From a virus (lineage: Duplodnaviria; Heunggongvirae; Uroviricota; Caudoviricetes), in IMG/VR virus record IMGVR_UViG_2778261162_000003: a stretch of 54,013 bases of DNA; one strand, 5' to 3'. The notes under the pieces were generated by a model, which saw only the letters and a list, made by a program, of their open reading frames with translations, was not told the origin of the DNA and made no database searches. The position numbers were made by a program, and so were the translations under genes. Positions within the stretch are counted from its first letter, which is position 1, and every line of letters begins with the position of its first letter. This document shows, one piece after another, positions 3,235 to 14,495 of the stretch.

Positions 3235-3424
3235 AACTAAGCCGCCTCGTTGAAGCGACTAAGGTATGAAATGTTGAGTTGATTTCAGCTGGTCACACCG
3301 ACGTTCACGCGTCCGTTTCACCCCTCGCACTCCCCGAAGCCTGCTGAAATTCAAACTGCGGATCTAAGCGGTCATCGCAACGGTGAATCAGGTGGTTGCC
3401 GTATCGTTGTGTTGTTGCGATGAA

Positions 3425-3505
3425 CTTATTTAAAACTATAGTTGTTTTACCGTCAACAACAAAAGTTGTTTTATTGGTTGTTTTAGATATAACTGGTTGT
3501 ATTTA
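3425..3505 (-). promoter_or_regulatory. Putative pL promoter with OL operator repeats
   Basis: Minus-strand -35 TTGACG (3451-3456) and -10 TTAAAT (3428-3433) with 17-bp spacer; AACAAC/GTTGTT half-sites including palindrome AACAACAAAAGTTGTT (3455-3470); same architecture as the pR region. Confidence 0.45.
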
Positions 3506-3745
3506 GGATGGATTTATTTTGTGACTTGAATCGCATAGCGATAACTGAAGCGAGGTTATGGTGGTTTTTTTAACGGTGTGTGTGATGAGGGGAGGGCAAA
3601 AGAAAACCCGGCACGGTGACCGGGATTCTTACGCCGTTAGGTAAAGATATTATTGCGGTGGCTTAATATTACTACCTAGAGCAAAGATAGGAATTAGTTC
3701 TTTACTGAATGAGCACAATGCCCAGTTGATAATTTTTAATTGGTA

Positions 3746-4435
3746 CTACCCATGCTTCCTATATGTCTGCGGCATGCTCCCAATAACCTTACCGAAGATG
3801 AACACCCGGTTCATCTCGTCTTTCTCGATCGGGTCCCACGGTGAGTAGCTTTTGTTATCAGAGATGACCAGCAGCTTATCCTTCATCATTTGCAGGCGCT
3901 TTACATGGGCTGTGTCGTCGTACAGAAACGCATAGATACCATCACCGTCGAAAGATTTAACTGTGATATCAACGAACAGCAGATCACCTGGTTCGATCGT
4001 TCCTGACATGCTGTCACCACGCACGTTAATGATGCGGATATTTTCCGCCTTCCTACCATCGAACATATGACGAGCATCGTCAAACGAGTACTCAACCGAG
4101 CGTAGAACTTCTACAAACTCACGGTTGATGACTCCCGGCCCAGCACTGACTTCTATATCAAGAACGTCAATCTTGAAGTATTTGGAATGGCTGACAGTTG
4201 ATTGTATTGGTTGCACTGTACTGTCTGACATATTTCCAACGCCAGAAGATAACCATTCTGCGCGCACACCCAAAGCGTTCGCGATCTCCACGATTTTAGT
4301 TGTTTGATTAGCTTTCCCTGTTTCGATTTTCTGAATAGCAGCTTGGCTAACCCCGACCAAATCCCCAAGCGCCTTTTGTGTAAGGCCTCGCGCTAATCTG
4401 GCTTCTTTAAGTCTTTCTGAGAGTGTTGTTTTCAT
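3746..4435 (-). CDS. cI: Prophage repressor CI (N-terminal HTH plus C-terminal LexA/S24-type self-cleavage domain)
   Basis: HTH LTQKALGDLVGVSQAAIQKIETGK; C-terminal domain with catalytic Ser (RGDSMSGT) and Lys (HVKRL); start taken at MKTTLSERL since the upstream ATG lies inside the operator region; no Shine-Dalgarno, consistent with a leaderless pRM transcript. Confidence 0.85.
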   Translation of the reverse strand: MKTTLSERLKEARLARGLTQKALGDLVGVSQAAIQKIETGKANQTTKIVEIANALGVRAEWLSSGVGNMSDSTVQPIQSTVSHSKYFKIDVLDIEVSAGPGVINREFVEVLRSVEYSFDDARHMFDGRKAENIRIINVRGDSMSGTIEPGDLLFVDITVKSFDGDGIYAFLYDDTAHVKRLQMMKDKLLVISDNKSYSPWDPIEKDEMNRVFIFGKVIGSMPQTYRKHG

Positions 4436-4539
4436 AGTCCAAATGTACAACCAAGGTTTTATTTCATCAAACGAAAATGGTTGTTGACTAAAAACAACCA
4501 TAGTTTTAATCTTGATTCAAATTAACCACGGAGGTTGTT
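4436..4539. promoter_or_regulatory. Divergent pRM/pR control region with OR operators
   Basis: Plus-strand pR: -35 TTGACT (4484-4489), 17-bp spacer, -10 TAATCT (4507-4512), RBS GGAGG before cro ATG; palindrome ATGGTTGTT-N7-AACAACCAT (4477-4501) overlapping the -35. Confidence 0.55.
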
Positions 4540-4770
4540 ATGAACCCAGCTATCAAAACAGCGATCAATATCGTTGGTTCACAAAAGAAACTGGGCGCTG
4601 CTTGCGAAGTTTCACAGCAGGCCGTCTATAAGTGGCTTCACAACAAAGCAAAGGTATCCCCTGAACATGTCGGCAGCATTGTTACGGCTACTGGTGGAGT
4701 AGTGAAGGCATACCAGATTCGCCCGGATCTTCCGAAGTTGTTTCCACACACCGAAAAGAACGCAGCTTAA
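4540..4770 (+). CDS. cro: Cro-like HTH regulator
   Basis: 76 aa, divergent from cI across an operator region; HTH QKKLGAACEVSQQAVYKW. Confidence 0.7.
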   Translation: MNPAIKTAINIVGSQKKLGAACEVSQQAVYKWLHNKAKVSPEHVGSIVTATGGVVKAYQIRPDLPKLFPHTEKNAA

Positions 4771-4839
4771 ATTTCCATTTCACGCTCTTTAACAATAAGC
4801 AATCAACTTAACAGTCAATTCAAACTAAAGGAGTCAATT

Positions 4840-9575: not shown

Positions 9576-9686
9576 GTAATAATCACTTTTTCAACCGTGC
9601 TATAGTAAGAAAGTTAGGTAAGTACAATAAAATTATCTATCCTGAACGAAGCGTCCTGAGCTATGGTTTTACTATAGGGACTGCCA

Positions 9687-10004
9687 ATGGATGCTGGCGT
9701 TCTCGTTCTAGCAGTTCAACAATCCCCAATCACAAAACAATTCACTGATAACGAACTTTGCACACTCGCCTGGTTATGGCGAGCAGGGAATGTGATGTTA
9801 ATTGCCTACCAGAACGTTACTCATCTTCTTCAGGATGCGGAGCATGGTGAAGCTGGTCACTTCACTTCCATCGAGCAAGAATATCCCCAGATACTCAACA
9901 GAGCGCGAGCAATCCTCGTCCGAGAAACGGCACATGTAAAACTTCAGCCGTGGCAGGATGATAAGTGGAGTCGAGTATTGCCGTATTTGCGTCAAATCTG
10001 TTAG
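9687..10004 (+). CDS. Hypothetical protein
   Basis: 105-aa ORF in the AT-rich islet downstream of ybcK; codon usage less AT-rich than its neighbours, possibly a gene remnant. Confidence 0.3.
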   Translation: MDAGVLVLAVQQSPITKQFTDNELCTLAWLWRAGNVMLIAYQNVTHLLQDAEHGEAGHFTSIEQEYPQILNRARAILVRETAHVKLQPWQDDKWSRVLPYLRQIC

Positions 10005-10193
10005 GAGTATAGCCGCCAGCCATGAGTGTTGTATTAAAACAAGGATGTCTATATATGGGATAGCGAGAGTATGAATATCAGTTATTTTGAGAGTTAACTG
10101 ATTGTGAAATTAGTTTTTTTCACAAACGAGTGGGGTTACTATGATGAGTGTTCTAATGCATAGGGAACACCTAATTTTTTCAATGAATTCAAA

Positions 10194-11138
10194 TTGATAG
10201 GATCAAAAATGGCACAACAGAGAACTACCTCCCTCAGATCCATACCTTTAGACTTAGATGTTAAGCAAGAGGCTGTCATTAACGGTATAGAAATGGGGGT
10301 ACTCGATAACGGAATTCCGTACCTTACTCAGAATGGGTTGGCAAATGTTTGTGGTGTTCAGCGTTTGCGAATCAAGGAAATTACCGATGAGTGGGCTCAA
10401 TCCGTTGAGAACGGTATTTTCAAAAAAGGAAGAATGACTTTTATTGGTACATATCTTCTTAATGAAGGTTTTACAGATGAAAAACTTTATATACCAATAA
10501 TTCGAAATGGTGTTGAGTACCATGCTTATCCAGATGTTGTATGCATGGCTATACTTGAATACTATGCCTTTGAAGCAAAACAAGCAGAAAGTGAGACTGC
10601 AATTAGATCTTACAGAGAGCTTGCTAAAAAAGGCCTCAAGACATTTATATACGAGGCGCTAAAATATCAACCGGAGGACCCGTGGAGGCATTACCATGAC
10701 AGAGTATCTTTATTAAAAGATAAGGGAACCATACCTGATGGGTATTTCATTATATTTAATGAAATTGCAGGTATGATGGTAGATCTCATCAATGCTGGAT
10801 TAGCGATTAATCAGCATACCGTACCTGATGGCAGTGTTGGTTCTTGCTGGGCGCGTCACTGGAAAGCAAAGGGGTTAGCAACAGAATTTGGAGAAAGAGT
10901 AGACTGTGAGCATTATTACCCTGAAGATTTTCTTCAGGCAAGTTCCAATCCTCAGATCATTAATGCCTATCCTGATTCTGCATTGTCAGAGTTTCGTAGA
11001 TGGTTTAAGCATGAATATTTAACCACAAAGTTCCCACCGTATATTCTTAAAAAATCAAACGTGCTTCCTGGTGGTACAGAAGATGCTAATCGTCTGATAG
11101 AAGCTTTCAAAAAATCAGAGCTAGAAAATAAACCATAA
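10194..11138 (+). CDS. Hypothetical protein with KilA-N/Bro-N-like N-terminal domain; candidate antirepressor or abortive-infection protein (BstA-like architecture)
   Basis: 314-aa ORF with AT-rich upstream region; N-terminal DNGIPYLTQNGLANVCGV resembles the Bro-N/KilA-N core (GEPWFVAKDVAEALG-like); C-terminal two-thirds unrecognised. Confidence 0.6.
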   Translation: MIGSKMAQQRTTSLRSIPLDLDVKQEAVINGIEMGVLDNGIPYLTQNGLANVCGVQRLRIKEITDEWAQSVENGIFKKGRMTFIGTYLLNEGFTDEKLYIPIIRNGVEYHAYPDVVCMAILEYYAFEAKQAESETAIRSYRELAKKGLKTFIYEALKYQPEDPWRHYHDRVSLLKDKGTIPDGYFIIFNEIAGMMVDLINAGLAINQHTVPDGSVGSCWARHWKAKGLATEFGERVDCEHYYPEDFLQASSNPQIINAYPDSALSEFRRWFKHEYLTTKFPPYILKKSNVLPGGTEDANRLIEAFKKSELENKP

Positions 11139-11334
11139 TTGTTTTTTGGCTTTTGATTTTACATAATCATTTTGCCATAATCATGTCATCGGAGCCTGAA
11201 CAACTCCGGTGACTTCTGCGCTAAACGGGGACGTTTATGCGCACATACAATCCAAACTCTCTTCTCCCTTCACAGATGCAGAGATGCACCTGCGATTTTT
11301 TGCATCCAGCGTTTGACCTCTGCGGAGGTGAAGC

Positions 11335-11790
11335 GTGAATCTCCCACAAGATGGCATCAAATTACATCGCGGTAACTTCACCGCTATCGGTCGGCAGATC
11401 CAGCCTTATCTGGAGGAGGGCAAATGCTTTCGCATGGTGCTTAAACCGTGGCGTGAGAAACGCAGTCTTTCCCAGAATGCACTCAGCCACATGTGGTACA
11501 GCGAAATCAGTGAATACCTCATCAACAGGGGTAAAACGTTCGCCACTCCAGCTTGGGTAAAAGATGCTCTCAAACACACATATCTCGGTTATGAAACCAA
11601 AGACCTGGTTGATGTCGTAACCGGTGATATCACCACTATCCAGTCGTTACGCCATACCTCCGATCTTGATACCGGAGAGATGTATGTCTTCCTGTGTAAG
11701 GTTGAAGCCTGGGCGGTGAATATTGGCTGCCACCTGACTATTCCGCAGAGCTGCGAGTTCCAGCTGCTCCGTGACAAGCAGGAGGCGTAA
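11335..11790 (+). CDS. ybcN: NinB-family protein (YbcN)
   Basis: 151 aa, matches K-12 DLP12 YbcN / lambda NinB family. Confidence 0.9.
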
Positions 11791-13397: not shown

Positions 13398-14495
13398 TTA
13401 GAACTGGTAAACCAGACCTACAGCAACGATGTCATCAGTGCTTACACCGAGTGCTTTAGTGAAGTCATTTTTGTCAAGCAGGTTGATTTTGTAATCAACG
13501 AAAGTAGACATATTTTTGTTGAAGTAATAGGTTGCACCTACATCAACATATTTGACTAAGTCCTGATCGCCCCATACTCCAAGATCTTTACCTTTAGATT
13601 GCAGGTAAGCAACGGACGGACGCAGACCGAAATCGAACTGATATTGTGCAACAGCTTCGAAGTTTTGGGCTTTATTAGCAACGAAGTGATCAGCAAATAC
13701 AGTCATATTCTGGGTTTCAGAATAGGTAGTGGCCAGGTAAATGTTGTTAGCGTCATATTTCAGACCTGCGGCCCAAACTTCTGCATTTTTACCGGAAGCA
13801 AATACTTCAGGAAGAACTTTCCCTGCATTAACTTGAGTGTCGGTACGATCAGATTTCGCATAAGTTGCACCGATACCGAATCCTTCGTATTCATAGGTAG
13901 CAGAGAAACCGAAGCCATCACCGTTACCTTCAGTGTAGTTATCGAAATCGCTACGATCGTTTTTGCCTTGGTACTGAGCAGCAAAGTTCAGACCATCAAC
14001 CAGACCAAAGAAGTCGTTGTTACGATAGGTTGCAACACCAGTGGTGCGACCAGTCATGAACACATCTGTTTGGGTCCAGGTATCGCCACCGAATTCTGGC
14101 AGAACGTCAGTCCACGCACCGATGTCGTATGCTACACCGTAGTTACGGCCGTAATCGATTGAGCCGTAGTCACCGAATTTCAGGCCTGCAAATGCAAGAC
14201 GGGTTTTGTCTTTGGAGGAACCTTGAGATTCAGCGCGGTTGCCTTTGAATTCATATTCCCACTGACCGAAACCAGTCAGTTGATCGTTGATTTGGGTTTC
14301 ACCTTTGAAGCCAAGACGGGCATAAGTAGTATCACCATCATCTGCATCATTAGAGGAGAAGTAGTGCTTGGCATTAACTTTCCCGTACAGATCCAGCTTG
14401 TTACTGTCTTTATTATAAATTTCAGCTGCCTGAGCAGACATCGCCATCAGTACTGATGCAGCTACAGCAGAAATTGCCACTGTTAATTTTTTCAT
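13398..14495 (-). CDS. nmpC: OmpC/OmpF-family general porin NmpC, apparently intact
   Basis: 365 aa with signal peptide [23 protein letters not shown] and C-terminal ...VGLVYQF; antisense to the late operon between Q and the lysis genes, as for the lc gene of phage PA-2. Confidence 0.9.

Follow-up and report, generated by a model that had tools for sequence, protein, structure and literature searches.

A bstA homologue in the nin region of an argU/DLP12 lambda-like prophage of Escherichia coli

What is encoded between ybcK and ybcN in the lambda-like DNA analysed here (a stretch of 54,013 nucleotides, referred to as the window), and do the two genes that lie there belong together? In Escherichia coli K-12 this interval, between ybcK and ylcH/ybcN, is taken up by ybcL and ybcM, and K-12 also lacks the smaller of the two window genes. 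An initial annotation of the window had treated the locus as an AT-rich islet of two genes, the larger of which was singled out as a predicted phage-defence gene. Our analyses divide the locus differently and place the larger gene in a family of prophage proteins with a known role in defence.

The cargo cassette and its place in the prophage

In strain GE3 the region lies inside an apparently complete lambda-like prophage at the tRNA-Arg gene argU, beside fimZ. The gene set of this prophage comprises int, exo/bet/gam, the repressor, cro, O, P, ren, emrE, ybcK, both ORFs, a ylcH-like gene and ybcN, together with ninE, ybcO, rusA, Q, a porin, and the lysis, head and tail genes. Collinearity between the window and the GE3 argU prophage extends over about 28 kb, and the larger gene of the window, the bstA homologue described below, is prophage-encoded, with lambda-like genes of the replication, nin, Q, lysis and structural groups around it. 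The locus has the following parts:

9687-10004, plus strand: ORF105, an ORF of 105 aa with the P22AR C-terminal domain only; prophage backbone
10003-11151, no strand assigned: variable cargo cassette of 1149 bp, GC 0.38, with bstA and its own 205-bp upstream region
10209-11138, plus strand: bstA homologue, 309 aa, with a putative N-terminal DNA-binding domain and a BstA_C domain
11237-11338, plus strand: ylcH-like ORF of 33 aa; backbone, outside the cassette, overlapping the start of ybcN at 11335

Two plus-strand ORFs were found in the region, ORF105 at 9687-10004 and a larger one that runs to 11138 from either a TTG at 10194 or an ATG at 10209. Both had been recognised from the outset, the larger as a protein of 314 aa. 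Since an AGGA (10200-10203) lies 5' of the ATG at 10209, and the identical gene in RefSeq (WP_000068668.1) has the same start, the ATG was taken as the start codon, giving a product of 309 aa. That neither ORF resembles the YbcL and YbcM proteins of K-12 was borne out, as no BLASTP match was better than E 0.4. The ylcH-like ORF was placed on the basis of the RefSeq annotation of the identical region in GE3 and of the backbone homology, which is back from about 11152.

The limits of the cassette emerged from BLASTN comparisons with four related prophages or phages, including phage Turner. Homology ended at about 10002 (at 9992 in one of them) and resumed at 11151-11153, which puts the cassette edges just 3' of the ORF105 stop codon and 13 bp 3' of the bstA stop codon; BLASTN homology to K-12 had already ended at 9614. 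The supposed two-gene islet is accordingly reduced to a cargo that extends over 10003-11151 only, with ORF105 as part of a backbone common to prophages that carry other cargo. The AT-rich character ascribed to the block holds for the cassette (GC 0.38, vs 0.50 across the window as a whole and 0.51 across ybcN-rusA), but not for ORF105 (0.475), and the AT-rich tract is not confined to the block, as it extends left over emrE and ybcK (GC 0.36).

At an identity of at least 99% the cassette was present in 110 of 5426 complete E. coli genomes, on chromosomes only and always in a prophage at the argU/DLP12 site; among the matches listed, its intact copies were flanked by the P22AR_C ORF and ybcK/ybcN. 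It is nearly invariant across its carriers, and many E. coli genomes match a stretch of 2.1 kb around bstA at 100% identity. The same slot in other strains holds alternative cargos. Two of them encode hypothetical proteins, of 260 aa and 169 aa, another combines a HEPN-domain protein with a partner of 133 aa, and there are further cargos of different sizes. Cargo is exchanged at this slot, which is bounded by the P22AR_C remnant and ylcH/ybcN, and the varied nature of the cargo, including a HEPN-domain gene, fits a defence or moron hotspot. PADLOC and Pfam searches with the 260-aa and 169-aa cargo proteins, YbcL, YbcM and YbcK produced no match to a defence family.

The larger gene and the BstA family

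Profile matches over essentially its entire length make it almost certain that the 309-aa protein belongs to the BstA family. PHROG 6287 ("BstA abortive infection system, replication inhibitor") was matched with an E-value of 1.9e-136, residues 10-313 (in the numbering of the 314-aa TTG-start form) aligning with positions 2-303 of a profile of 304, and the PADLOC BstA model with an E-value of 3.8e-121 over profile positions 5-291 of 292. In tblastn searches of phage genomes, BstA of the Salmonella phage BTP1, the founding member of the family, was 40% identical to the 309-aa protein over 97% of its length, and a Pseudomonas phage protein was 50% identical to it. A large protein database contained the identical sequence (P0001) and 1250 homologues at E <= 1e-10, and the BstA_C domain (PF26567) was annotated on P0001 and, among the 120 homologues listed, on every one except a truncated form of 187 aa. 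The assignment of BstA_C to the 309-aa protein comes from this precomputed annotation and from the full-length PHROG and PADLOC matches; local Pfam and NCBIfam scans gave no usable match for the protein. The C-terminus, which the initial annotation had left as unrecognised, is therefore a named domain, and of the two architectures that it had offered, BstA was the one upheld by the full-length matches.

BstA is a prophage protein that gathers at the replicating DNA of a foreign phage, blocks replication and aborts the infection (Owen et al. 2021, PMC8585504), and the aba element spares the prophage's own lytic growth (PMC8585504). The three BstA proteins that have been assayed, those of BTP1, Klebsiella and E. 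coli NCTC10963, are only ~40% identical and yet all defend, each with a cognate aba (PMC8585504). Because proteins so diverged share this function, it was extended to the 309-aa protein, itself only 38-40% identical to any tested BstA, and we consider it likely that this protein acts as an abortive-infection defence. The prediction that the larger gene would serve in defence gains in this way from the end-to-end match to the BstA models.

The best explanation of the locus, and in our view a probable one, is that 10209-11138 encodes a BstA abortive-infection protein carried in a nin-region cassette of a lambda-like argU/DLP12 prophage. By homology with the three tested proteins, BstA would be produced in the lysogen. 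Upon infection by a sensitive foreign phage it would gather at the replicating DNA of that phage and replication would be blocked; the infected cell would then die without the release of progeny, and both the population and the resident prophage would be protected. A cognate aba that overlaps the beginning of bstA, for which 10162-10230 is a candidate, would leave the lytic growth of the prophage itself unharmed.

The gene had been thought uncharacterised, a description that does not fit: the family has been known, with experimental tests, since 2021 (PMC8585504), and BstA at this hotspot was catalogued in 2023 (PMC10121019). According to the latter survey, bstA in E. coli occurs only in lambda-like prophages in tRNA-Arg at hotspot 32, i.e., envY-fimZ, tRNA-Arg TCT (Hochhauser et al. 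2023, PMC10121019). Hotspot 32 is the argU/DLP12 site, and since bstA prophages are reported there, the window bstA has to be regarded as already catalogued. The window agrees with the hotspot 32 prophages (PMC10121019) in site, prophage type and defence-gene call, but that survey lists the system only, without its position inside the prophage, the limits of the cassette or the aba region. A literature search narrowed to KilA-N and phage defense found no newer mechanistic or structural work on BstA.

Comparison with the proteins already assayed brings out both likeness and difference. The window protein shares with BTP1 BstA its two-domain make-up and its carriage by a prophage, but the window gene does not follow the repressor; its neighbours, in the nin region, are the P22AR_C remnant on one side and ylcH/ybcN on the other. 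With BstA-Ec of NCTC10963, which defended with its cognate aba (PMC8585504), it has in common the species, the family and, again, the prophage origin. The BstA-Ec type was identified in E. coli O178:H19 2012C-4431 (locus L013, 301 aa), where the sequence upstream of the gene matches the published cloning primer exactly. It is only 38% identical to the window protein, and the immunity region in which it adjoins a LexA/CI-like repressor is a different one, P22-like in type. That the window gene might be the published BstA-Ec itself was considered and rejected, given the absence of the cloning primer from the window, the difference in length (897 bp vs 930 bp) and the 38% identity.

Promoter and aba candidates at the 5' end of bstA

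The location of bstA after the repressor is conserved to a striking degree (Owen et al. 2021, PMC8585504). Six close relatives of the window gene were examined (Lonsdalea, 74% identity; Rosenbergiella, 70%; Morganella, 69%; and three metagenomic contigs), and in five of them bstA lay directly downstream of a repressor with HTH and S24-peptidase domains; the exceptions were a 76% relative and the second copy of a 74% relative, both of them beside tail or unannotated genes. This typical arrangement is not that of the window, where the minus strand carries the repressor-like gene (3746-4501) and bstA is situated ~5.7 kb away in the nin region, in the pR direction. As it is not downstream of the repressor, bstA probably needs a promoter of its own, which would lie in the 205-bp upstream region. 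Two candidate elements were recorded in and next to this region:

10117-10145, plus strand: weak promoter-like site TTTTCA-17-TATGAT, from a consensus scan (9/12); candidate for bstA's own promoter
10162-10230, plus strand: candidate aba, an imperfect direct repeat flanking the start codon at the family-typical position, with a spacing of ~57 bp

The promoter-like site is overlapped by an inverted repeat, TTGTGAAA/TTTCACAA, at 10102-10125. The number of promoter-like sites in the region was not above that in shuffled sequences, and alignment of the 205-bp upstream region with the spacers between repressor and bstA in the relatives gave motif matches of 10-11 nt only.

It is at this point that the most durable of the alternatives has to be weighed, namely that bstA is a silent or decaying passenger, unexpressed in lysogens or expressed only in the prophage's own lytic cycle, and has no part in defence. 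Its position in the nin region, away from the arrangement seen in five of the six relatives, the want of a convincing promoter and the degeneracy of the aba repeats (below) all lean in this direction, as does the fact that bstA is disrupted by IS1, IS2 or IS3, or truncated, in several genomes, although insertions of this kind would also be expected in an abortive-infection gene that is costly but active. A decaying gene would not readily account for an ORF that about 100 genomes of varied origin share in intact and identical form, that has a good ribosome-binding site and that was accompanied into the cassette by 205 bp of its own upstream DNA. Other morons of this prophage region, e.g., emrE in K-12, are expressed independently. 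With these points on both sides, we judge a silent bstA to be unlikely, and a functional BstA protein remains the preferred reading.

The aba element of BTP1 is a 63-bp sequence made up of 29 bp upstream of bstA and the first 34 bp of the gene (PMC8585504). It requires its terminal CCCGCC direct repeats, in either of which a single base change abolishes function (PMC8585504), and in the main text of that paper the repeat is described for BTP1 only (PMC8585504). The family at large was surveyed through 80 BstA loci fetched from reference genomes and anchored on the conserved motif MG....G..[YF]L; the 200 nt that precede the anchor were searched for exact direct repeats with a length of 6 nt or more. 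The spacings between repeat copies had a pronounced peak, at 57 bp in 39 cases and 56 bp in 15, with other spacings represented by roughly 2 cases each, and the validated BTP1 repeats, with a spacing of 56, fall in this class. The first copy was usually ~115-135 nt upstream of the anchor (mostly 122-131), and repeat units reached 16 nt in length.

The sequence of the repeat differs between BstA loci and agrees within a locus. Over a fixed 16 nt, a copy matched its own partner at 9.5/16 positions, the partners from other loci at 6.2/16 and control offsets at 4.3/16, and the own partner was the better match in 76 of 83 BstA loci; these statistics are based on simple shuffling controls and on loci that are phylogenetically related. 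An in-frame stop codon made the first copy non-coding in at least 25 loci, and in many alphaproteobacterial loci both copies are possibly inside a longer ORF. By its size the peak at 56-57 bp is convincing. For its function we infer, by analogy with BTP1, that repeats of this class may mark aba elements throughout the family. If so, locus-specific repeats could set which aba suppresses which BstA.

In the window the corresponding pair consists of AGGGAAC-ACCT (10162-10172) and AGAGAACTACCT (10219-10230). As in BTP1, the direct repeats lie on either side of the start codon, in the same position and with about the same spacing as in the mapped 63-bp aba; unlike those of BTP1 they are imperfect, with agreement at 8/12 positions at an offset of 57, or in 10/12 columns if one gap is allowed, which is not above control offsets. 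No exact direct repeat of at least 5-6 nt with a spacing of 45-70 bp was found around the window start codon. Cleaner versions exist in relatives: Rosenbergiella has two copies of GATCACCCCATT, two other relatives have two copies of CACCCT, and an 86% relative has two of AGAGAAC. In the window, 10162-10230 is put forward as a candidate aba with degenerate repeats.

Removed from the repressor promoter and with decayed repeats, the bstA of the argU prophage may have partly escaped from the BstA/aba logic. The composite proposal, in which aba elements are predictable family-wide from their repeats and the argU-prophage copy has partly escaped that logic, is a tentative one, and as a whole we are inclined to doubt it more than to accept it.

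Antirepressor-like features and the meaning of the locus

KilA-N and Bro-N heads are common in antirepressors, and a second alternative would make the 309-aa protein an antirepressor-type regulator, with a KilA-N/Bro-N-like head and an effector tail, that controls prophage induction. The origin of the neighbouring ORF105 from an antirepressor-like gene (below) and a weak resemblance of the N-terminal domain to DNA-binding folds could be taken to favour it. An AlphaFold2 model of the protein, built with 61 homologues, had a mean pLDDT of 87.7 and two domains, a predicted alpha/beta domain at the N-terminus and a C-terminal domain predicted to be mostly helical. The weak matches of the former to DNA-binding folds included the APSES domain of Mbp1, and PADLOC registered an HTH match in the protein (E 2.1e-8). 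For the C-terminal domain there was no convincing structural match, Foldseek with the model returned nothing significant, and a sequence search of solved structures gave nothing meaningful and no solved relative.

The motif that had suggested a KilA-N/Bro-N-like N-terminus, DNGIPYLTQNGLANVCGV, is present, as residues 33-50 of the 309-aa protein, but it was accompanied by no Pfam match to Bro-N, KilA-N, ANT or P22AR at E <= 1, and an hhalign comparison of the BstA profile with a Bro-N + P22AR_C protein gave a probability of 1.3%. The KilA-N-like label is accordingly remote and weak, and the Bro-N-like label is not supported. A full-length antirepressor match for the larger protein was looked for and did not occur. 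Against the antirepressor there is, in addition, the end-to-end match of both domains to the BstA models and the action in abortive infection of BstA proteins that are equally divergent (PMC8585504). An antirepressor at 10209-11138 is very improbable, and a BstA protein is again to be preferred.

The antirepressor-like sequence of the locus is found in ORF105. This ORF matches Pfam P22_AR_C (E 7.7e-14) and, over its full length, PHROG 7640, and it aligns with residues 101-198 of a 202-aa protein of strain GF47 at an identity of 77%. The GF47 relative has both a Bro-N and a P22AR_C domain; ORF105 has the latter only, and Bro-N is absent from it. Homology to the GF47 gene starts at position 9688, one base past the first base of the ORF105 ATG, and this alignment identifies ORF105 as the 5'-truncated 3' half of an antirepressor-like gene, the truncation point of which coincides with the right edge of the emrE-ybcK block. 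The carriage of a P22AR C-terminal domain is a likeness to P22 Ant and to Bro-N/P22AR_C proteins in general, but the Bro-N half is missing from the window, and the 309-aa protein has no detectable relation to such proteins.

ORF105 had also been seen as a partner of the larger gene, and its distribution speaks to this. It was found in about 1100 genomes, the great majority of which (about 1000) are without bstA, it is kept in prophages that carry at least four other cargos, and none of the six close relatives examined (69-76% identity) has an ORF105-like neighbour beside bstA. Although the two ORFs are adjacent, on the same strand and co-occur in the intact carriers among the matches listed, a two-gene system of, e.g., a regulator or antidote with an effector is scarcely credible and was rejected on the module boundary that separates them (10002/10003) and on the contexts of the relatives, one of the partners being, moreover, a truncated half of a gene. 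ORF105 is an unrelated remnant of the backbone and should not be counted as a component of a defence system.

The window bstA is, then, a known BstA family member, already catalogued at the argU/DLP12 site, i.e., real but ordinary. Most copies of the gene at this site are still labelled "hypothetical protein" in RefSeq, and about 2% of complete E. coli genomes carry the BstA variant of the window in their argU prophage. What interest is left lies in the non-canonical position of the gene, its degenerate aba candidate, the unrecognised alternatives in the slot and the repeat signature of the family. The window copy departs from the repressor-linked arrangement thought typical of bstA, and, if its escape from the BstA/aba logic is true, BstA might hinder the induction of its own prophage or come under a new kind of regulation. 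The slot's alternative cargos, including two unrecognised proteins and the HEPN pair, might be searched for defence functions. For the family as a whole, the 56-57 bp repeat signature, if confirmed, would locate aba elements and would offer a test of how BstA separates self from foreign DNA.

Cargo exchange and the adjoining gene break

A slot bounded by a P22AR_C remnant and ylcH/ybcN is a site of cargo exchange in these prophages, and the following regions were compared:

10003-11151, cargo slot of the window
L010:4429-5402, slot region of a second locus
L011:4429-5190, slot region of a third locus
L015:2664-3882, slot region of a fourth locus

In K-12 the slot is occupied by ybcL/ybcM. Its occupants in other E. 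coli strains are a protein of 260 aa or one of 169 aa, both without a match in Pfam and PADLOC scans, a HEPN-domain protein together with a partner of 133 aa, or cargos of other sizes. Strain GF47 has an unbroken Bro-N + P22AR_C gene of 202 aa, of which the 105-aa ORF (9687-10004) proved to represent the C-terminal half. The break, at junction 9687/9688, falls where the AT-rich emrE-ylcJ-ybcK block (GC 0.36), which encodes a large serine recombinase, ends on the right, and this suggests that the block was inserted into, or recombined with, the Bro-N + P22AR_C gene.

Other genes of the prophage

The argU prophage of E. coli strain GE3 is collinear with the window except in the immunity region (3387-4839 in the window versus L003:12314-15439), where in GE3 a 533-aa SIR2-family protein, likely the product of a second defence gene, adjoins the repressor. 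The corresponding place in the window, downstream of a 251-aa repressor-like gene, is just ~500 bp (3235-3745) and holds no ORF of at least 50 aa. Downstream of the Q-like antiterminator is a further gene:

13398-14495, minus strand, intact porin gene of the nmpC/ompC type, 365 aa

Its K-12 counterpart, nmpC, is disrupted by IS5.

Broken copies of bstA and repeats at its loci

Several carriers have a bstA that is truncated or interrupted by IS1, IS2 or IS3 (E. coli genomes H1-H6, H122 and H123, and the database protein P0039), one truncated form being a 187-aa product, with 54 member sequences, that matches 57% of the protein at 100% identity. Such disruptions are consistent with an active abortive-infection gene that carries a fitness cost, as well as with simple decay of the gene.

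A survey of 83 BstA loci (from L016-L095, L004, L007, L013 and L014) revealed direct repeats spaced 56-57 bp apart upstream of the conserved N-terminal motif. Exact repeats of 6 nt or more number 54 at the two spacings together, versus ~2 at any other. The repeat units agree within a locus, and their sequence varies between loci. The counterpart of this region in the window is:

10162-10230, candidate aba element

The experimentally mapped aba repeats of Salmonella phage BTP1 fall in the same 56-57 bp class, and, judged from sequence, direct repeats at this spacing may be a general signature of aba elements, the self-immunity DNA of BstA.
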